DNA of 64,000 nt from an uncultured Candidatus Rokubacteria bacterium (lineage in GTDB: Bacteria > Methylomirabilota > Methylomirabilia > Rokubacteriales > DASRDR01): contig CAWDVE010000016.1 in NCBI GenBank assembly GCA_963805625.1, forward strand, positions 480,001 through 544,000, in the 5' to 3' direction. Below, piece by piece: positions 46,258 to 57,654 of this stretch (positions are counted from its first letter, which is position 1; every line of letters starts with the position of its first letter). A program made the position numbers and the translations under genes. The notes beneath the pieces are model-generated. The model was given only the letters and a program-made list of their open reading frames with translations. It made no database searches and was not told the origin of the DNA.

Positions 46258-49026
46258 TCAGGGCTGAAGAAGAGGAGAGGCACCGTGGTCTAGGCGCTGC
46301 TGTTGTGTCGCCTGACTGCACTTCGGGCTTGTCGATTCGGTCAAGTCGCCGCAGTACAGCGCTTGCGACTGGTTGATCTGGACCACCCCGGTTGAGGGCG
46401 ATCCGACCGTGAAGCTGCCGGTCGGCGCGGCGTGAAGTCGTGTACTGCCGCTCACCGCCTCGACGGTCTCGTGACCCAACTCGTGAGCGAGTGTGAAGTC
46501 GGTGGCGATGCTCGTCAGCATCGTGCCCGTGTTGGTCGCTGGGGCGACGACCTCCGAACAGAAATCGCCCGGATTGGCCGTGAACGCCTTGACCCCGCTG
46601 ACGCCCGTCGCGGATATCACATAGTAGAGGTTCACGTCGGTCGCCACGGTCGGGGGCGCGGGGGACGGGGGCTCCATGTTCATGAGGTTCTGTTCTTCTG
46701 TCGTGAGAACCTTATTCGTGAGGGCCACGCCGTCGACTCCGAGCACGATGGCGGGAGGGGACGCGGTTGTCAGGCAGTTGGGCTCCGTCGCATTCAGTTG
46801 ATGGTTGACATCGACGTCCAGGAGGGTATCGACGACCGGCACCGTCGTGATGCGACGGAGCCGGACGTTCACCCCGGCCTGCGAGAGGATCTCAGTCACG
46901 TTGCGGACGTCCCGCTCGACTAAGGCGTTGTCAACAGCCCCTGTCTGCCCGGCCGTCGGGTAATTCACCCGGTTTGCAAACCTGGTCGTGCTCTTGAGGA
47001 TCTTGGCGTCGACCCAGATCGTCTGGAAGCGGATATCGTCGATGAGCACCCGCGTCTCGTACTGGCCGTCGCCCCCGTTGGACAGCGTGAACAGCAACTC
47101 GAGTGTTGCGTTCGTCCCAGCAGCGCTGCTCAGGTCGAACTCGACAGTCCTCCAGTTCGTCTGTGCGCACGATGTATCCCCGGGGGTGGGGCTGGCGGCG
47201 AAGCAGTCACCGAACTGATACGGCGAAAGAACTGCGCCCGCGCTACTGATGAGCGTGAAGGCGCTGTTCACTGTCGACTGGAATTGTTTCGGCGTCCAAC
47301 CCGAGGGGCAATTGGCGGTGCAGTTGATGAGGATCGTGAACGGATCTTGAAACGGCTTGCCGACCCACTCGGTGATCTCCTCGGTGACGTAGTTGTAATT
47401 CATGCGAAACTTCGTCGCCCCGGCCGGGACGGTGATGGTCTGCTTCAGACTCGAGCCGGTGTTCAAGCCCGTGGTCGGGTCGTTGGTCCTCAGGGCCGCC
47501 ATCGATTTACCTTCCGACGGCAGGATGGTACCAGGAATGGTACCTAGCGTGCCACGCCCCCATGCGCTGGGGGAGCAAATATTCTGATAATTGATGTTGT
47601 TGCCGCGTTTGATCGTTTTGCAGAGAGGGTTGGGAGGGACATAGGTAGCGGTCGGCCCGAGTTGCTGTATGACCGAGGCGCCTCCGGTGAACGCCCAGCT
47701 CGAGAGGTCACCGCGCTCGAAGCCGCCGTTCCGAATCCCCGGGCGCGTGTTGACTGGCGCGCTCGGTGCCGTAAGCGTGATGTTGGCGGTTCCCGTGCCC
47801 AGTTCAGACGGAATCGTGCCGGTTCCCGAGCCGACTGAGCCTTTCAAGGGGTGAAAGGCGTTCACGGTGAACTGGCCGCCCCCGGGCGTATCGACGAAGA
47901 GCGTGTACTTGCCGCTCGAGTCCGTCGTGGCGACGAGAGTGTTCGTCGGGTTGCTCACGACGACACCGGGCTGCGCCACCCCCCCTTGGGTGACGGTCCC
48001 CGAAGCGTATCCGCTCCCATTCCCCGCCAAGATCCCGTACGTCCCCGCCGTGAGAATACCTGGAAGCGCGCATGGTTGCCCATCCAATACCGTGGTCGTC
48101 ATGATCGTCCCCGCGGAGACGCTTGCGCAGGCCACCGGAATCGCCTGCGCGGTCGCGGAACCGACGCAGATGGGGGTGGGGCCGTCGACGAGAGTGTAGC
48201 CCATGGGGCACTGGCCGCCGGAGGGAAGCGTGACCTTGTCGACGAACACCTCCTGGGCGACCACTAACTTCGTGCCGTCTATCAAGCCCGACTGCGTCTG
48301 CACCTCGATGTCGAACGGCAGGCTCGGATCCTCAGCCTCGCCTCCGAACACTGCGCTATCGACGGTCAGGTTCACGACTTCGACGACCGGCTTGTTTCCA
48401 GGGTTCGCGCCGAAGACCTTCCCTTTCTTGGCTGAGACGAAGGCGGCCCCGCGAAGGGAACCTGGCGGGACGTGCACCGTGACTCCGTTCCCCTGAACCG
48501 TCCCGGCCGCCCCCGCGTCGAAGAACTCGCCGACCAGCAAGATGAATTCACCCGACTCGAACGAACTCGGCGAGTTCTTCAGACTGTAATTGAGGCGAAC
48601 CTTGAGACGCATGGAGATCGCGAGAGGCTCGTTGAAGGTTTGATCGCAGATGAAGAGTCCCTTCCCGACGTTGTGAAAAGATGACCCCTGACCCGTACCG
48701 ACCGCTGTCGAATCCTTCATCTGACAGACGGTCGTCTCGGAGCCGGTGTCGCTTACCCGCATCAGCTTGACGAGGAGGGACCCCTTCAGGGCGGGATTAT
48801 TAAAGTCGCCGATCTGTGCCGTGAACGACACCGTTGTCGGCACGCCGACCTGGATGCAACAGTAGTTGTCATTGAAAGCGTCCGCGTTCTGGGCTACGAA
48901 TGACGTGGCCGCGACCGTCGGGGCAGCCCACGCGATGGCGGGGCCTCCGAGAATAATCCCGAAGAACAAAGCGGACAGGACTGTGGACCCAACGATTGCC
49001 AGAATCCCCGCCGGCTGGCTTCTCAT
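46258..49026 (-). CDS. Large secreted Thr/Ser/Cys-rich multidomain protein: carboxypeptidase-regulatory-like domain, CBM-like jellyroll, C-terminal HExxH (zincin-like) region
   Basis: Signal peptide after GGAGG RBS (MRSQPAGILA..AIAWA); SGTVT..GV.V..ATTDSSGKYTL; IRNGGFERGDLSSW..VLIDDIRF; FTLAHELGHE. Confidence 0.72.
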   Translation of the reverse strand: MRSQPAGILAIVGSTVLSALFFGIILGGPAIAWAAPTVAATSFVAQNADAFNDNYCCIQVGVPTTVSFTAQIGDFNNPALKGSLLVKLMRVSDTGSETTVCQMKDSTAVGTGQGSSFHNVGKGLFICDQTFNEPLAISMRLKVRLNYSLKNSPSSFESGEFILLVGEFFDAGAAGTVQGNGVTVHVPPGSLRGAAFVSAKKGKVFGANPGNKPVVEVVNLTVDSAVFGGEAEDPSLPFDIEVQTQSGLIDGTKLVVAQEVFVDKVTLPSGGQCPMGYTLVDGPTPICVGSATAQAIPVACASVSAGTIMTTTVLDGQPCALPGILTAGTYGILAGNGSGYASGTVTQGGVAQPGVVVSNPTNTLVATTDSSGKYTLFVDTPGGGQFTVNAFHPLKGSVGSGTGTIPSELGTGTANITLTAPSAPVNTRPGIRNGGFERGDLSSWAFTGGASVIQQLGPTATYVPPNPLCKTIKRGNNINYQNICSPSAWGRGTLGTIPGTILPSEGKSMAALRTNDPTTGLNTGSSLKQTITVPAGATKFRMNYNYVTEEITEWVGKPFQDPFTILINCTANCPSGWTPKQFQSTVNSAFTLISSAGAVLSPYQFGDCFAASPTPGDTSCAQTNWRTVEFDLSSAAGTNATLELLFTLSNGGDGQYETRVLIDDIRFQTIWVDAKILKSTTRFANRVNYPTAGQTGAVDNALVERDVRNVTEILSQAGVNVRLRRITTVPVVDTLLDVDVNHQLNATEPNCLTTASPPAIVLGVDGVALTNKVLTTEEQNLMNMEPPSPAPPTVATDVNLYYVISATGVSGVKAFTANPGDFCSEVVAPATNTGTMLTSIATDFTLAHELGHETVEAVSGSTRLHAAPTGSFTVGSPSTGVVQINQSQALYCGDLTESTSPKCSQATQQQRLDHGASPLLQP

Positions 49027-49085
49027 GGGGAAATCCGCCTCCATCTTTTGTTGGTGAAGACACGATCTTGTGGTGAAGATGCGAC

Positions 49086-49199
49086 CGCTTCGTTCGATAC
49101 GACGATACGATGAAGATCCCCCGAGCGCTTCGTTCGATACGATGGAGATTGTCTGCAAAGCGTCAATCTGAGGCACTTCCTGACTGAGGCACTTCCTGA
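49086..49199. repeat. Direct repeats in the 5' leader of the secreted-protein gene
   Basis: CGCTTCGTTCGATACGA at 49086-49102 and 49126-49142; tandem 16-mer CTGAGGCACTTCCTGA at 49168-49183 and 49184-49199. Confidence 0.85.
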
Positions 49200-49214
49200 C
49201 CAAAACACGCGGCA

Positions 49215-49242
49215 ATACTAGCATTCTCTGAGACGGTGTCAA
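49215..49242 (-). promoter_or_regulatory. Sigma-70 promoter for the secreted-protein gene
   Basis: Minus strand reads TTGACA-N16-TAGTAT with a TGn extended -10. Confidence 0.6.
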
Positions 49243-49259
49243 TCCGCGGGGTTCTCCGA

Positions 49260-50756
49260 TGCTGTTGGTCCATAAGAATGTCATAGGCTAACTGTTCAGT
49301 GAGAGTGTCACCCCATGCCGACATGGGAGCCTCTCACGATGAGTCGCAAGGAAGTCCCGCGGCCCGGCCTGCTCAAGGCGGCCCTGGCCGGGAAGTTCAC
49401 CAATGCCGAGGGAGCCGGGGCCTTGCACCTGAGCGTCCGGCAGTTCATCCGGGTCAAGCATCGCTTCCAGGCCGCCGGGGCGTCGGGCCTGTGCCACCGC
49501 CTGCGGGGGCGACCCTCCCCCCGCCGGCTGCCGGCCGACGTCCGGGCGCGGGTGGCGGCGCTCCTGCAGACCACCTACCTCGATGTCAATGACTGCCACG
49601 CCACGGAGAAGCTGCGCGAGGTCGAGGGCCTCCGCGTCAGCCGGGCCTCCGTGCGGCGGATCCGCCGCGCCCTGGACCTGCCGGCCAAGCATCGCCGCCG
49701 GCCCCGCCAGCACCGGGCTCGCCGGACCCCGGAAGCCCGCATGGGCGTCCTCGTCCAGCTCGACGGCAGCCCCCACGCGTGGCTCGAAGACCGGGGCCCC
49801 GCCCTGACCCTCCACGGCGCGATCGACGACGCCACCGGCACGGTCCTGGCCCTGCACGTTCGGCCGACCGAGGACCTGCACGGCTACGCCACCGTGCTCC
49901 AGCAAATCGGTCTGGCCTACGGCCTCCCGCTGACCCTGTACGGCGATCGTTTCGGCGTTTTCGTCCGCAACGACCCGCACTGGACGCTCGCGGAAGAACT
50001 CCAAGGCCACCAGCACCCCACCCATTTCGGCCAGATCCTCCGAGACCTCGCCATCGGCTTCCTGGCGGCGGGCTCCCCCCAGGCCAAGGGGCGCATCGAA
50101 CGGCTCTGGCGCACCCTGCAAGATCGCCTCGTCGTCGAGCTCCGCCTGCGCGGGATCGCGACCCGCGCGGCGGCCAACGCCTTCCTCCCTGAGTTCCTCG
50201 CCGATTACAATGGCCGCTTCGCTCATCCCCCCACCGACGCCCACGCCGCCTGGCGGCCGCGGCCGCGGGACTTCGCCGACCAACTCAGCTGCCGCTACAC
50301 CCGCGTCGTCGCCCCCGACAACACCGTCCGCCTGGGGACCCGCTGGGCCCAGATCCCCCCCGGTCCTTCCGGCCGCTCCTCCGCGGGCCGCCGTGTCGAC
50401 CTCCGCGAGTGTGTCGACGGCCGGCTCCTTGTCGTCCGCGCCGGCGGGCGACTCGTCAGTCAGCCCTCGCCGGGGCCTGATTTCGTCCTCACGCCCCGCA
50501 GCAAGCCCCACGCGGAGCGCACGCGTCGCCTACGCGCCTCCAGGACTGCGTCGGAGGAGGGGGGCCGCCATCAGAGTATTCCCCAGAAACCGCCTGCGCG
50601 CCCCTCGGCGCGCCGCCTCACCCCGACCACCCAGACGGCTCGCCCCGCCGCCACGCATCCCTGGCGCCGCTCACTCAACCTCCGTCGCCACACCCCTCAC
50701 ACAGGGGTGACATTCTCACGGAACAGTTAGGGTGACATTTTCACTGGACAGCTACA
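49260..50756 (+). mobile_element. Complete IS1202-family (ISNCY) insertion sequence with 17-bp target-site duplication
   Basis: TG...CA ends with ~55-bp imperfect terminal IRs (CTAACTGTTC.GTGAGA.TGTCACCCC); TCCGCGGGGTTCTCCGA at 49243-49259 and 50757-50773. Confidence 0.9.
49315..50730 (+). CDS. DDE transposase, IS1202/ISNCY family
   Basis: HTH (LHLSVRQFIR), VQLDGSPHAW, AIDDATG, LYGDR, SPQAKGRIERLWRTLQDRL. Confidence 0.93.
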   Translation: MPTWEPLTMSRKEVPRPGLLKAALAGKFTNAEGAGALHLSVRQFIRVKHRFQAAGASGLCHRLRGRPSPRRLPADVRARVAALLQTTYLDVNDCHATEKLREVEGLRVSRASVRRIRRALDLPAKHRRRPRQHRARRTPEARMGVLVQLDGSPHAWLEDRGPALTLHGAIDDATGTVLALHVRPTEDLHGYATVLQQIGLAYGLPLTLYGDRFGVFVRNDPHWTLAEELQGHQHPTHFGQILRDLAIGFLAAGSPQAKGRIERLWRTLQDRLVVELRLRGIATRAAANAFLPEFLADYNGRFAHPPTDAHAAWRPRPRDFADQLSCRYTRVVAPDNTVRLGTRWAQIPPGPSGRSSAGRRVDLRECVDGRLLVVRAGGRLVSQPSPGPDFVLTPRSKPHAERTRRLRASRTASEEGGRHQSIPQKPPARPSARRLTPTTQTARPAATHPWRRSLNLRRHTPHTGVTFSRNS

Positions 50757-51110
50757 TCCGCGGGGTTCTCCGACACCGGCTCAATCCGCGCGGAGTCGGC
50801 TGCCAGGTCGTTGGAGGATCTTAGAGCGACAACGGAGGAACCGGGTGGGGGCGACATCTCGGCTGGCGATGTTGCCCTCGTCGGTGGCCAGGCAGCAGGC
50901 TCAGACCTTCCTGAGCCTATGACGACGCGTCAGGTAGGCCGTTACCCCCGGCGGGCGATGACCTCGCAGGACTCAACTCAGGTGAAAGCGCCGCACAAAA
51001 TTCACCCAGCACCGGCCGTAACCTCCCAGCCGGTCGGGTAGTCCTTCAGTGTTTCCGGGCAAGCATCTTCGCCCGGTCTATCGAGACGCCTGGTGGGGTC
51101 GGCGAATCCG

Positions 51111-51263
51111 TTAGCGTCGCCGACGGGCCCACCATGCGACGCCGGCCACGCCGATGCTCAGCAGCGCCATCGTCCCGGGCTCGGGCACCTGCTCAAACCC
51201 ACCAGCCTGGGCGACCGCGGCCCAACTCAGGATCAAAGCGACCACCATCATCGTCCTGCGCAT
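51111..51263 (-). CDS. 50-aa PEP-CTERM micro-protein (signal peptide + GGFEQ + sorting signal)
   Basis: Manual translation MRRTMMVVALILSWAAVAQAGGFEQVPEPGTMALLSIGVAGVAWWARRRR*; GAGGGGGAG RBS; below the ORF-track length cutoff. Confidence 0.85.
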   Translation of the reverse strand: MRRTMMVVALILSWAAVAQAGGFEQVPEPGTMALLSIGVAGVAWWARRRR

Positions 51264-51316
51264 AGACTCCCCCTCATGTGGATTGCGAGGAAACCCTTGT
51301 CGCAGTCTTAGAGCGA

Positions 51317-51332
51317 TGCACGAAGTGGGCCA
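51317..51332 (-). promoter_or_regulatory. Sigma-54 (-24/-12) promoter of the PEP-CTERM gene
   Basis: Minus strand TGGCCCACTTCGTGCA has exact GG-N10-GC spacing, ~55 nt upstream of the ATG. Confidence 0.65.
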
Positions 51333-51397
51333 AAAGGCGCAAGTTACGGCCAGATATGCTCTTTCATGAAGTCCATCGCGCTGACGGTGCTAACTCT

Positions 51398-51414
51398 TGT
51401 AAACATTGATGACA
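51398..51414. promoter_or_regulatory. TGT-N11-ACA enhancer-binding-protein site (PEP-CTERM box-like)
   Basis: TGTAAACATTGATGACA ~65 bp upstream of the sigma-54 site; a second TGT-N11-ACA (TGTCGGCTTTGTTGACA) lies at 51533-51549. Confidence 0.55.
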
Positions 51415-51751
51415 GTGGCACTTAGAGATTGGGGCACATCCAAACGATTGTAAACAAGCACCAGCTGACTCTATTTCTGATCGGCACAGCGCCGCGGGAA
51501 TTACAGCAAGCGCATCATATCGACGATAGGGTTGTCGGCTTTGTTGACACAGCGGGGCTGTCAGACGCGGGATACATTGCAAAGGGATCCAGGCTCCGTT
51601 ATGAGAGAAATGGCACGATTCCAACCCCAAACGATCGTGAAGGAGGACCCCCCTGGTTCACTTGACCCATTTCACCAGGCGATCGAGGCCCGTATACTAG
51701 TTGGCGCCCAGATAGGAGCCGTCCAAGCTGTCCGGTATAGCGAGTCCGTCC

Positions 51752-52339
51752 ATGACGAGGCGCACCCTTATCCAGGGGCTGGCCATCCTGCTCCTGGGGC
51801 TCGCGGCGTCTATCTGGCTGATTTCGCCGAAACGGCTGCTTCGGGTCCTCTCCCGGCTCACGGCCAACCTTCTGGGCCCTCGACTGGATGCTTCCTCTCC
51901 CACCGGAGTCCTGGGGCCGGCCGAGCTGGATAGCGTCGTCGCTTTCGCTGAAGTGCTGGCGGAAGGGGTCCCCCTGCCCTCCGAGGGGTTGCAGATCCTG
52001 GTAGAGCACGTCAACGGGCGCACTCGAACCACCCCTGGGTGCCTCTCGCTCTATCGGGCGACCGCCACGGCGCTCGATCGCCTGGCCAACCGCCCATTTT
52101 CCGCTCTCGATCTCCCTGAGCGCACCGCCGTGATCATGGAGCACGGCCTTGCGCACCCGGTACGCATCTGGGAGCACCTAGTCCCCGTCCGGCGTCACGC
52201 CCTAGCGGTGCGCTTCCTGGCGGTTCCCGATCTGATCGACGGCTACTATCGCTCGGCGGCAGGGTGGGCCATCGTTGGATATGCCGCCTTCCCCGGACGC
52301 TGCGGCGACCTGGTTCGTTACACTCGCCCGGAGCCCTGA
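51752..52339 (+). CDS. Tat-signal accessory subunit (gluconate 2-dehydrogenase subunit 3-like)
   Basis: MTRRTLIQ signal; PFSALDLPER, GYYRSAAGWAIVGY..FPG; directly upstream of a GMC flavoprotein. Confidence 0.65.
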   Translation: MTRRTLIQGLAILLLGLAASIWLISPKRLLRVLSRLTANLLGPRLDASSPTGVLGPAELDSVVAFAEVLAEGVPLPSEGLQILVEHVNGRTRTTPGCLSLYRATATALDRLANRPFSALDLPERTAVIMEHGLAHPVRIWEHLVPVRRHALAVRFLAVPDLIDGYYRSAAGWAIVGYAAFPGRCGDLVRYTRPEP

Positions 52340-52345
52340 CCGCTC

Positions 52346-53941
52346 ATGGCCGTAGCGGACCCTCCGGAGCGGACGGAAGTCTGCATCATCGGCGCCGGAG
52401 CCGCGGGCGGGATTATCGCCGCAGAGTTGGTGCGGCGGGGCCTCCGGGTGGCCATGCTGGAATCAGGACCACGCCATGAGCTCGCCAAGCGGGCCGAGTA
52501 TGCAAGACGGTTCCTTCGAGGCGAGAACCCTTGGCGAACGGCTCTCACAGGGCTGGACCGCTACACGACAGGGGGGAGCGTCGCATATCGCCTCGAGTGG
52601 AACCGGGCGCGCGGGGTTGGCGGAAGCACGCTCCACTGGGAGGGTTACGCCCTGCGATTTCACGCGAATGATTTTCGCTTGCGCTCGCTTTACGGTATCG
52701 CCGACGATTGGCCGATCTCCTACCAAGATCTGGAGCCGTTCTATGCCCGAGCCGAGGTGAGTCTCGGGGTTGCCGGAGCCCCGGATGATCCGTGGGCCTC
52801 ACCGCGAAGCGCGGGCTTTCCGCTGCCGCCATTCTCATTCAGCTACTCCGATGGCGTGTTTGCCCAAGCCTGCAGCAGCCTCGGCATCGCCCTGCATCAC
52901 TATCCTCAGGCCAGAAACTCCGTCCCGTATGGCGGCCGCGCGCAATGTCGCGCCTGTGGCACCTGCCACGTCTGCCCCACGGGGGCCAAGGCGACCATCG
53001 ATCTCACCCACATCAGAGAGGCGGAGGCGACGGGCCGTCTCCAGCTCGTGACAGATGCGACGGCTCTGAGACTCCATGTCGATGAATCCGGCCAGGTGAC
53101 CTCCGTCGCATACGCGGGTCACGACCGGCGCGAGCGCAGGTCGGTCGCACGCATCTTCGTCGTCGCCGCCGGTGCGATCGAGACGGTCCGCCTCCTCCTC
53201 CTGTCCGCGTCAGAGCGCTTCCCGCGGGGTCTGGCGAATCGCAGCGGAGTCCTGGGAAAGTACTTCATGTCACACCCTGCGATCACGGTGACCGGGCGCC
53301 TGAAGGCAAAGGTCCATCCTTATCGCACGGGCTTCTCGAGCGCCATGTCGCGGCAGTTCGCCATTGACCGCATGCGGGCGAGAAGAGGCGCCTTCATGCT
53401 CGAGCTTCTCAACTCCGCCGGCCCTACACCGAACCAGATTGCTACTTCCAGTGGCCTCTGGGGGGAGGCGTTGCGGGGTCATGTTCGCGAAGAATTCGGG
53501 CACGTGCTCGGAATCCGGATCTCCTGCGAACAGCTCCCCGACGCGGCGAACTCGATCTCCCTGGACCCGGAGCTCAAGGACCACTTCGGGAATCCGGCGC
53601 CCCGCATCACATATGATGTCGGGTCGTACGAGCGTGAGACGCTCCACGAAGCGACGGGGGTGGCCCAGCGGATTCTCGGAGCCACCGGTGCGGTTGACGT
53701 CGAGTCCCACCCATTGTGGTTTCTCGCCCACCAGATCGGAACCCACCGCATGGGAACCGATCCGCGATCGAGCGTCGTCGATTCCGACCTCCGCGCTCAC
53801 GATGTGTCAAACCTCTATCTGGTGGGGAGCGGGTGCTTCGTCACCGCAAGCTCCTCGCCACCAACCCTGACCATTGCCGCGCTGGCGATCCGAGTCGCCG
53901 AGCACATCGCCGCCCGACTCCGTCGCGATGCGACCGCGTAG
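52346..53941 (+). CDS. GMC family oxidoreductase with Cys cluster
   Basis: IIGAGAAG, GVGGSTLHW, WPISYQDLEPFY, CRACGTCHVCPTGAK, HQIGTHRMG, PTLTIAALA. Confidence 0.93.
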   Translation: MAVADPPERTEVCIIGAGAAGGIIAAELVRRGLRVAMLESGPRHELAKRAEYARRFLRGENPWRTALTGLDRYTTGGSVAYRLEWNRARGVGGSTLHWEGYALRFHANDFRLRSLYGIADDWPISYQDLEPFYARAEVSLGVAGAPDDPWASPRSAGFPLPPFSFSYSDGVFAQACSSLGIALHHYPQARNSVPYGGRAQCRACGTCHVCPTGAKATIDLTHIREAEATGRLQLVTDATALRLHVDESGQVTSVAYAGHDRRERRSVARIFVVAAGAIETVRLLLLSASERFPRGLANRSGVLGKYFMSHPAITVTGRLKAKVHPYRTGFSSAMSRQFAIDRMRARRGAFMLELLNSAGPTPNQIATSSGLWGEALRGHVREEFGHVLGIRISCEQLPDAANSISLDPELKDHFGNPAPRITYDVGSYERETLHEATGVAQRILGATGAVDVESHPLWFLAHQIGTHRMGTDPRSSVVDSDLRAHDVSNLYLVGSGCFVTASSSPPTLTIAALAIRVAEHIAARLRRDATA

Positions 53942-54742: not shown

Positions 54743-56098
54743 TCAGAACGACCGGATCAGGCGCTCCACCCGCTCGTCGTGAGCCTGGAACGGGTCCTTG
54801 CAGAGGATGGTCTCGCGCTCGGGGTCGTTCAGCTTGAGGTAGACCCAGTCCACCCGGTAGTCCTTGCCCTTGAGGTTCGCCCGGCGGATGAACTCGCCCC
54901 GGAGCCGGGCGCGCGTCGTCTGGGGCGGCGTGTGCTTGGCCCCCTCCACCTGCTCGTCGCGCACCAGCCGATCGACGCGGTCGTTCCGCGCCAGCAGGTA
55001 GTAGACGCCCTTGAAGGGCCGGATGTCGTGGTACTGGAGGTCGATGAGGGACACGCGGGGGTCCCGCCACGACAGGCGGTGCCGGGTCATGTAGTCCTCG
55101 ATCACCTGGCGCTTGATGACCCAGTCGACCTCACGGTCGCACTGGTTGGGGTCCGTTTCGAGCCGGGTCAGCATGTCGGCCCAGCGATCCAGGACATCGC
55201 GCGTCACCGGGTCGGCGTCGACGTGCTGCGCGTAGGCGAGGCACGCCTCCAGGTACTCCTTCTGGATCTCGAGGGCGGTCATGGCGCGCCCGTCCTTGAG
55301 CTTCACCGTCTCCCGGAGCCCTGGGTCGTGGGAGATGTCCCGGATGGCCTGGACCGGCGACTGGAGGCTGTAGTCCCGGTCGAAATAGCCGTCCTCGATC
55401 ATGTCGAGGACCACGGCGGTGGTGCCGACCTTGAGGTAGGTCGCGACCTCCGACATGTTCGAGTCGCCGACGATCACGTGGAGCCGCCGGTACTTCTCCG
55501 CGTCCGCGTGGGGCTCGTCGCGCGTATTGATGATGGAGCGGGACGAGGTGGTGGCGCCGGAGATCTCCTGGCAGATGTGCTGGGCGCGCTGCGACAGGCA
55601 ATAGTGGAAGCCCCGCGGCGTCTGGAGGACCTTGCCGGCGCCCGCGAAGATCTGGCGGGTCACGAAGAACGGGATCAGCGCCTCGGCGAGCCGCTGGAAC
55701 GAGACGTCGCGTGACACCAGGTAGTTCTCGTGGCAGCCGTACGAATTGCCCGCCGAGTCGGTGTTGTTCTTGAAGAGGAGGATGTTCCCCGAGATCCCGT
55801 CCTCGCGGAGCCGCTTCTCGGCCTGGTGCAGGAGGTCCTCGACGATGCGCTCGCCGGCCTTGTCGTAGACGACCAGGTCCATCACGTCGTCGCACTCCGG
55901 AGTGGCGTACTCCGGATGGAAGCCGGTGTCGAGATAGAGTCGCGCCCCGTTCTCCAGGAAGACGTTGGCGTTGCGCGCTCCCGGAATGACCTTCTCGAAG
56001 AGATAACGAGCGACGTTGTCCGGGGAGAGCCGGCGCTGACCGTTCAGCGTGCACGTCAGCCCGTACTCGTTCTCGAGCCCGAAGATGCGTCGCTTCAT
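54743..56098 (-). CDS. pafA: Pup-protein ligase PafA
   Basis: [66 protein letters not shown]. Confidence 0.95.
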
Positions 56099-56820
56099 GA
56101 GGTCCCCGTGGGCCGGCCGCCCTCTGGCGGGTCGGGACGCCCGAGGATCGTGCGGAGCTCGCCGTTGGCGACGCGCCGGAACTTCCGGCGCTCGCGCTTC
56201 TGGTCGAGCACCGCGACCTCGAGGTCGCGGTCCGTCAGCGTCTTGTTCTGCGTGACCGTCAGTGCACGGATCCCCAGCCGCACCGCCTCGGCGAGGGGGG
56301 TGCCCTCTCGGTAGTGCTCCTTGAGGAAGCGGCGGATCTCCTCCGCCTGGCCACCCATGGCCGCGTAGTTGCGCTCGTCCTCGATCGACCCGTCGTAGAG
56401 GACATGATACATCTCGTTCTTCCCGTTGGAGCCGTCGGCCACCTCGACGACCAGCACCTCGACCTCGAACGGCTTGAGCCCCTCGGTGAAGATGGTCCCG
56501 AGCGCCTGGGAATAGGCGTTGGCGAGCGCCTTCGCGGTCACGTCCTCACGGTGGTACGAGTAGCCGCGGAGGTCGGCGTGCCGCACCCCTGCGATCCTGA
56601 GATTCTCGAACTCGTTGTACTTGCCGACCCCGGCGAAGGCGATCCGGTCGTAGATCTCGGAGATCTTGTGGAGCAGGGTGGAGGGGTTCTCGGCGACCAG
56701 GAGCACGCCATCCTGGTACTCGAGAGCGACGATGGACCGGCCGCGGGCGATGCCCTTGCGGGCATACTCGGCCTTGTCCTTCATCATCTGCTCGGGCGAG
56801 ACGTAGTAGGGAAGGGGCAT
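56095..56820 (-). CDS. prcA: 20S proteasome alpha subunit
   Basis: [49 protein letters not shown]. Confidence 0.96.
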
Positions 56821-56823
56821 GGA

Positions 56824-57654
56824 TCAGCGTCCCTGGCGCCGCGCCGCCACCACGGCCTCGCACTGGGCTCGCACCTCGGCCTCGGCGACCTCCTCGAACC
56901 CGGCGCGGGTGATCACCTTCACGGTCGGGAAGATCCCGTAGGTGAAATCGGGGCCGCCGGTCCCCACGTCTTCCTCCGCCGCGTCGACGAGCGCCTCGGC
57001 TGCCCAGCGGATTCCGTCGACTCGCGACGCGCCCGTCCGGTACAGCTTCTTGAGCGTGGTGCGCGCGTCCTTGCCGCCCGACCCGGTCGCCGCGTAGTCG
57101 GTCTCCTCGTACCGGCCCCCCGTGACGTCGTAATTGAAGATCCGCCCCTCGGCGCGGCGCAGGTCGTAGCCGGCGAAGATGGGCACGACCACGAGGCCCT
57201 GCAACGCCATCGGGAGGTTCATCCGGATCATCTGGCCGAGCTTGTTCGCCTTGCCTTCGAGCGACAGGCCGTCGCCCTCCACCTTCTCGTAGTGCTCGAG
57301 CTCCGTCTGGAACAGGCGGGCCATCTCGATCGCCGGTCCGGCCGCGCCGGCGATCGCGACCGCGGAGTACTCATCGGTCTTGTAGACCTTCTCGATCCGC
57401 CGGTGGGCGACCTGGTAGCCCTCGGTGGCCTGCCGGTCGCCGGCGACGATGACCCCGTCGGCGTACCGCAGCGCGAGGATCGTCGTCCCGGTCGGCACGC
57501 CCGGAACGCCGTGGGGCTCGGCATGGGGGGCCGGCCCGCTCACACCGGGGCGTGAGCCGAGCAGGTCCGGCGCCTCCTGGCGCAGGAGATCCACGAAGCT
57601 CCGGTTCACGTAGCGCCCGAAGAGACCTTGCCAGGACTCGTGCATGGGGGCCAT
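56824..57654 (-). CDS. prcB: 20S proteasome beta subunit with propeptide
   Basis: G/TTILAL autoprocessing site, AGDRQATEG, ELEHYEKVEG, ATGSGG. Confidence 0.95.
   Translation of the reverse strand: MAPMHESWQGLFGRYVNRSFVDLLRQEAPDLLGSRPGVSGPAPHAEPHGVPGVPTGTTILALRYADGVIVAGDRQATEGYQVAHRRIEKVYKTDEYSAVAIAGAAGPAIEMARLFQTELEHYEKVEGDGLSLEGKANKLGQMIRMNLPMALQGLVVVPIFAGYDLRRAEGRIFNYDVTGGRYEETDYAATGSGGKDARTTLKKLYRTGASRVDGIRWAAEALVDAAEEDVGTGGPDFTYGIFPTVKVITRAGFEEVAEAEVRAQCEAVVAARRQGR

Follow-up and report, generated by a model that had tools for sequence, protein, structure and literature searches.

Can a protein that consists of little more than its own sorting signals be a substrate of the PEP-CTERM/exosortase system? 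In this work we have analysed a stretch of 64,000 nucleotides of DNA (the window) in which the initial annotation had drawn attention to a 50-aa ORF, read as a signal peptide, the residues GGFEQ and a VPEP motif followed by a membrane helix and RRRR. This reading was borne out by the sequence and by the scores of two sorting-signal profiles. The ORF is organised as follows:

51111..51263, minus strand: micro-protein ORF (signal peptide, GGFEQ, PEP-CTERM), 50 aa; its relatives are short and it has no frameshifting indel against the orthologous locus L011
51204..51263, minus strand: predicted Sec signal peptide, codons 1-20, ending in AQA; read from the sequence, with an AlphaFold helix at residues 2-14 and a predicted cleavage
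51189..51203, minus strand: cargo GGFEQ, five residues; GGFE is invariant in 6/6 family sequences
51114..51188, minus strand: PEP-CTERM sorting signal (VPEP, membrane helix, RRRR); PF07589 and TIGR02595, helix 29-49

The micro-protein belongs to the PEP-CTERM proteins, as its C-terminal tag scores above the curated cut-offs in the profile scans (PF07589, 36.2 bits against 20.7; TIGR02595, 28.4 bits against 16), and it is the best-scoring of the 19 PF07589 matches in the genome. Judged by eye, its N-terminus has the n/h/c layout of a signal peptide and the AQA end at which cleavage is predicted. An AlphaFold model, built with 88 sequences of the micro-protein class, contains helices 2-14 and 29-49 with a loop between them. 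The mature outer segment would thus be GGFEQVPEP, and the cargo is free of Ser, Thr, Asn and Cys. Near-identical short-read contigs cover 50751-51162 and 51220-51370, none of the pieces listed spanning the cargo codons. Among 9 sequencing runs listed for it, none was an RNA data set, which says nothing for or against expression. The predicted signal peptide and the tripartite C-terminal tag are those of the PEP-CTERM/exosortase (EpsH) system with PrsK-PrsR and sigma-54 (Haft 2006, PMC1569441). The difference lies in the cargo, which has five residues here and roughly 130-200 in the intact PEP-CTERM proteins of this genome; Ser, Thr and Asn in PEP-CTERM cargo have been linked to glycosylation (PMC1569441), and the micro-protein has none of them there.

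The region upstream of the ORF contains three elements:

51267..51275, minus strand: purine-rich ribosome-binding site, seen in the sequence and kept in L011
51317..51333, minus strand: sigma-54-type -24/-12 promoter, GG-N10-GC (motif 2 of Haft 2006); core identical in L011
51398..51414, minus strand: PEP-CTERM box (motif 1, predicted PrsR site), TGT-N8-TTTACA / TGT-N11-ACA; first base differs in L011

The PEP-CTERM cis-element was described as a 17-nt motif ending in TTTACA and followed by a sigma-54 motif, with 62.8 +/- 10.6 nt between the two and 71 +/- 38.5 nt from the end of the sigma-54 motif to the start codon (Haft 2006, PMC1569441). In the micro-gene these distances are 64 and 53 nt, so that both sequence and spacing agree with the published element, and here too a single gene follows a long intergenic region with the TTTACA motif about 63 nt before the sigma-54 site. 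On the two strands of the 7.27-Mb genome there are 8 copies of TGT-N8-TTTACA, of which 4 lie upstream of PEP-CTERM matches, and the composite of TTTACA and sigma-54 pattern occurs 3 times where about 0.4 would be expected. The ribosome-binding site and the GG-N10-GC promoter named in the initial annotation were both found and both are kept in L011. The TGT-N11-ACA palindrome is likewise present, with the TTTACA end, but its 5' arm is CGT in L011, where TTTACA and the sigma-54 site are retained; the palindrome itself is thus not strictly conserved. For one PEP-CTERM gene, dependence on RpoN was shown in a 2023 study of Aquincola (PMC9850573).

The machinery that such an element calls for was also largely found, as in other PEP-CTERM genomes (TIGR02602, TIGR02915/6). 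An exosortase on contig C13 scores 124 with TIGR02602 (cut-off 105.55), no named subtype attaining its own cut-off, and the motifs C-x-G, N-x-x-R and H-x-x-x-G are visible in its sequence; a second sortase is a weak, XrtH-like match. PrsK (406, cut-off 300) and RpoN (441, cut-off 277) were found in profile scans of the genome. There are two copies of prsR, 94% identical; a single additional base occurs in both, though not at the same position, and their TIGR02915 pieces (279+304 and 222+355 bits) stay below the cut-off of 503 as they stand. The extra base of the C19 copy is missing from a related short-read contig, and further genes are split in the same assembly, so the extra bases are likely an assembly error. 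Exosortase, PrsK and RpoN, which the earlier reading had expected together with prsR, hence stand above their cut-offs, with prsR interrupted in both copies as assembled, and the reading as a PEP-CTERM gene under a PrsR/sigma-54-type element is upheld by this machinery and by the geometry of the box. The prsK-prsR region is duplicated (G000 C19:696140-700072 and C17:472188-474618), the match of the second prsK being confined to the C-terminal portion of the model. PEP-CTERM tails with neither signal peptide nor cargo occur at G000 C10:331935, C10:236659, C12:144253 and C13:3382; these are apparently decayed fragments, one of which has a sigma-54-type site upstream.

Is the ORF a gene in its own right, or what a deletion of the cargo has left of an ordinary PEP-CTERM gene, persisting near-neutrally? 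PEP-CTERM genes are described as turning over fast (PMC1569441), several fragments lacking a signal peptide lie in the genome, and an insertion sequence is found 355 bp downstream. The relatives speak against a remnant. A search returned 10 matches among 32 candidates, two of the same length and 76-80% identical; their clusters contributed two more, and a fifth was a mis-started copy. These five relatives are 76-84% identical to the micro-protein and equally short, as are all 6/6 sequences of the family. No long-cargo orthologue, the finding that would have marked the ORF as a remnant in the initial annotation, turned up: the signal peptide was absent from 119 longer matches (the best 120 of 311, less P0013), in which its best score was 36 against 99-113 for the true relatives. 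The 103-aa P0013, tried as a long form, proved to be the same micro-protein, extended upstream, and was rejected. Because of the five short relatives and the missing long-cargo orthologue, a recent deletion is unlikely.

A single orthologous DNA locus, L011, was recovered; it is free of the insertion sequence, and its next gene is orthologous to that of the large secreted protein. Searches of 40 relatives at the DNA level and 60 at the protein level gave no orthologue, and none of the 250 other genomes searched in the taxonomic class of the host yielded the family of this micro-gene. A short-frame match in G004 was set aside as a different micro-protein, and two loci from a GTDB-wide scan were rejected, one as an antisense chance match and the other as the tail of a long PEP-CTERM protein. 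Against L011 the 50 codons give a dN/dS of 0.38. The membrane helix accounts for ten of the 11 non-synonymous changes, and the signal and cargo part for 1 in 29 codons. There are no frameshifting indels in the coding part, where about 4 would be expected, and 16 in 579 flanking bases (P ~0.015), so the reading frame appears to be protected. The ORF is 87% identical to L011 and the non-coding flanks 83-84%, and this DNA pair is a weak test because the flanks are almost as conserved as the ORF. Many unrelated clusters show this design as well, and of the 13 micro-gene pairs listed 12 have a dN/dS below 0.5; the one pair at 1.41, on few changes, counts against this. Together, the comparisons indicate that the micro-gene is real and that its short form is conserved, and we regard a cargo-less remnant as improbable. 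No Rfam match was obtained in 49000-52000, and comparison with L011 revealed no conserved ORF in the downstream spacer.

Next to the micro-gene we find several genes of secreted or envelope type and a mobile element:

46258..49026, minus strand: large secreted protein with a C-terminal HExxH, a possible zincin, ~922 aa; protease activity predicted from the motif only
49260..50755, plus strand: ISNCY-family insertion, transposase 49315-50730; absent in L011
51752..52339, plus strand: 195-aa protein, probably the small (hitchhiker) subunit of a dehydrogenase in the periplasm; divergently oriented to the micro-gene
52346..53941, plus strand: GMC flavoprotein; closest solved relatives are fructose/glucose dehydrogenase large subunits

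The HExxH protein has no PEP-CTERM tail and no family match above cut-off. It occurs in only 2/251 genomes of the class, in both beside a micro-gene, as in L011; the homologue in the other of these two genomes (L085:1630-3930, 34% identity) is followed by one. The insertion is flanked by an unusually long direct repeat of 18 bp (49242-49259 and 50756-50773), four further sites in the genome are 100% identical to its end over 57-59 nt, and in L011 its insertion point is occupied by a sigma-70-like site that precedes the large secreted gene. Could the promoter then serve chiefly the HExxH gene, the micro-ORF being a by-product in the leader of a longer transcript? In the insertion-free L011 both genes point the same way with about 545 bp between them, and no terminator-like site was called in this interval on that strand. 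The large gene of L011, however, has its own sigma-70-like site (10/12), the micro-gene of G241 lies downstream of the HExxH homologue, and many micro-genes stand alone, so that a mere leader is very improbable.

Homologues of the pair formed by the 195-aa protein and the GMC flavoprotein occur in 18 other genomes, of which 17 loci were examined; a weak match with two stops (G081) was left out. One homologue of the 195-aa protein has a weak match to PF13618 (E 0.036). At 2 of the 17 loci, both in other genera, an unrelated micro-gene directly adjoins the pair, the other 15 have none, and the orientation differs across all three linked cases. Two genomes carry both a micro-gene and the pair on separate contigs. 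About ten of the pair loci come after a gene for a large secreted protein, usually with a small DUF7450-like gene between, and the five such proteins scanned gave zincin and TSP3 matches. A recurrent four-gene operon (secreted ~880-aa zincin/TSP3 protein, small secreted DUF7450-like protein, dehydrogenase small subunit, GMC flavoprotein) can be seen in about ten genomes of the class, at loci L120-L130 and L132 (for example L123:94-3786 and L129:2933-8002). The HExxH protein of the window was considered as a member of this ~880-aa type and rejected, as the two are not alignable.

Elsewhere in the class, a micro-gene adjoins an unclassified secreted protein at 4 loci and a MauE-like membrane protein or a fatty-acid hydroxylase at 2 loci each. 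The unclassified secreted family has ~400 residues and a conserved C-terminal motif (L049:542-1732, L050:5974-7104, L082:2039-3277, L086:2131-3369) and gave no Pfam, NCBIfam or PDB sequence match; 4/4 copies adjoin micro-genes whose cargo contains Asp, through which the family was found. In two genera, a gene of the fatty-acid-hydroxylase family directly follows micro-genes whose PEP is replaced by PGP or PAP (L048:335-1623, in tandem, and L090:3108-4180). The recurrence of these neighbours exceeds chance adjacency, but shared islands of secreted-protein genes could explain it without a direct partnership.

How unusual is a PEP-CTERM protein with almost no cargo? Among 50%-identity representatives, a profile search gave 536 matches; 36 of the best 150 are <=100 aa, and about two dozen of those 150 consist, by eye, of a signal peptide, a few residues and PEP-CTERM. 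With a profile of 24 sequences of the class, 1,761 short proteins scored at E<=0.01 among 7,982 candidates, and a heuristic sorted the best 120 of them into 81 with a signal peptide and a cargo of <=12 residues, 25 with a longer cargo and 14 with no signal; their source names include Alphaproteobacteria and Gemmatimonadaceae. The rarity implied by the initial annotation was thus not supported, equally minimal proteins being common and a tiny target being already modelled by TIGR04200. The cargo has 4-9 residues in 78/89 micro-proteins, and a predicted Gly at +1 is found in 37/89 of them against 20/129 long ones, a length peak and a glycine excess that are partly built in because the profile favours such a length and Gly after the cut. 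The cargo differs among subfamilies, and the same design appears in many separate clusters.

In the taxonomic class of the host we counted 21 micro-genes at 20 loci in 17/251 genomes, the studied gene included, a minimum given that no more than 26 candidates were scored in each genome; the long proteins of G210, G046, G245 and G158 were dropped, as were G166 and G139, in which no intact micro-gene was seen. A subfamily unrelated to the studied one, in five species of one genus (L083, L087, L089, L091, L094), has its micro-gene at a fixed site with the PEP-CTERM box in 5/5, an invariant five-residue cargo core, diverged signal peptides and a dN/dS of 0.33-0.44 in the 8 pairs listed. At these loci the micro-gene lies between what we take to be a NUDIX-type gene and a DAHP synthase gene. 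This subfamily is the best candidate for experiments on the class, which looks widespread and mostly unnamed, the studied gene being one more member.

What might such a protein do? We favour, at a probability of about 0.5, a minimal exosortase substrate that would give rise to an envelope-linked peptide of 7-9 residues in a biofilm-type module of secreted enzymes. According to this model, PrsK/PrsR and sigma-54 would turn the micro-gene on under biofilm or EPS conditions. Sec or YidC would then insert the micro-protein as a hairpin and signal peptidase I would cut after AQA, so that a single-pass peptide of 30 residues remains and exposes GGFEQVPEP on the outer side. The general exosortase might next cut in or near PEP and hand the short peptide on to an acceptor, a lipid or a glycan; cleavage and transfer of this kind have been proposed for ordinary PEP-CTERM proteins (PMC1569441, PMC12188702). 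In the last step, the weakest of the model, the product may serve a small envelope module together with the secreted HExxH protein and the periplasmic sugar-type dehydrogenase, as a small conjugate or handle and not as a folded surface protein.

It may be instead that no exosortase is involved and that the product is a small membrane protein, a hairpin or a 30-residue single-pass protein, acting as partner or regulator of the envelope enzymes encoded nearby, or titrating exosortase as a decoy. One look-alike cluster in the Atlas is named 'XrtJ-associated TM-motif-TM protein', no exosortase was detected in three micro-gene genomes that are 93-98% complete, the Glu of PEP is replaced in 6 of the 21 micro-genes, and the cargo varies by subfamily; the undetected exosortase and the replaced Glu also count against the favoured model. 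On the other hand, the first helix has only 13 residues (2-14) and a classical A-x-A end, the studied protein keeps a canonical VPEP, and exosortase is enriched, being present in 13/16 other micro-gene genomes against 85/251 overall, a comparison between partly kindred and so non-independent genomes. We consider an exosortase-independent membrane protein possible, at clearly lower odds than the minimal substrate.

A peptide signal has also to be weighed. In the agr system (AgrD/AgrB/AgrC), a short precursor is processed by a membrane cysteine peptidase and read by a multi-helix sensor kinase, and the promoter is under the cognate regulator. By analogy only, the micro-protein offers a short precursor, a membrane cysteine peptidase, a sensor kinase and a regulated promoter: exosortase might free the cargo or cyclise it via its N-terminal glycine, the neighbours might tailor it, PrsK or another sensor might read it, and the PrsR box would close a feedback. 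The cargo is indeed invariant within subfamilies (GGFE here, the five-residue core in the other genus), Gly at +1 is enriched, though the query itself favours Gly, the enzyme-like neighbours recur, and the stimulus of PrsK has been called obscure (PMC1569441). Unlike in agr, the genes are unlinked, with prsK or exosortase in the flanks retrieved for 0/20 micro-gene loci of the class, the cargo has no Cys, and the precursor is missing from many exosortase-positive genomes. Gly at +1 is missing in 58% of micro-proteins. PrsK was found in 9/15 micro-gene genomes scanned and is absent from 6/15, which also counts against our favoured model. In a deeper search, 0/5 near-complete genomes chosen for their exosortase, not for PrsK, contained a micro-gene, and this argues against a universal role as the PrsK signal. 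A modified or released peptide of this type seems doubtful to us. Among the roles proposed in the initial annotation, an anchored peptide or scaffold fits the recurring enzyme neighbours best, while a released signal is weakened by the patchy distribution.

Tiny exosortase targets as such are already known, the XrtJ target and VPEID-CTERM being modelled in NCBIfam/Pfam, and look-alike clusters of 52-56 aa in the Atlas include both. VPEID-CTERM proteins pair with a dedicated exosortase. Their model (PF27847) is found on 15% of the members of an Atlas cluster of 52-aa look-alikes, with a motif that differs from that of the micro-protein. The XrtJ target ('PExPT-CTERM'/TM-motif-TM; TIGR04200, PF27850) resembles it in size (a 57-position model) and layout, with a weak match over residues 4-48 and an Atlas look-alike at 0.90. 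It differs in that the TIGR04200 score is 20.2 against a cut-off of 40, the motif of the micro-protein is VPEPG, no exosortase gene lies nearby, and no XrtJ exosortase was found in the genome (best 25, cut-off 200 bits); across the micro-protein class, 6/88 members match TIGR04200 at E<=0.001. What the studied locus adds is a variant with the general exosortase and a PrsR box, repeatedly linked to specific enzyme cassettes. Haft 2012 (J Bacteriol) reportedly defines exosortase subfamilies and may already describe such tiny targets. In the searchable literature, which lies outside that paper and includes the accessible part of 10.1101/2023.06.07.544157, we found no description of the class.

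The small size of the product also has a practical side. In the 2006 paper the exosortase cleavage site is left unspecified (PMC1569441), and in the 2023 Aquincola paper the C-terminal cut is said to need further study (PMC9850573). With a cargo of five residues the product could be read whole by mass spectrometry, which makes the question of site and acceptor directly testable. The recurrence beside a few enzyme cassettes hints at uses of the sorting tag beyond the display of folded proteins. Could cargo-less PEP-CTERM genes even be the precursors of an overlooked class of ribosomal peptides or peptidolipids? Exosortase would then be a maturation transpeptidase that lipidates the 7-9-mer or closes it on its N-terminal glycine, the neighbours (HExxH protease, GMC pair, fatty-acid hydroxylase, unclassified secreted protein) would tailor it or act as its partners, and the lineage-specific cargo would signal, or mark surface identity, in biofilms of soil and sediment. 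We think this unlikely as a whole.

The genome has a GC content of 70% and, by this value and its proteasome genes, may come from a Rokubacteria-type member of Methylomirabilota; on the minus strand of the window, at 54743-57654, lie three genes that we take to be those of a Pup-proteasome ligase and of the proteasome alpha and beta subunits.
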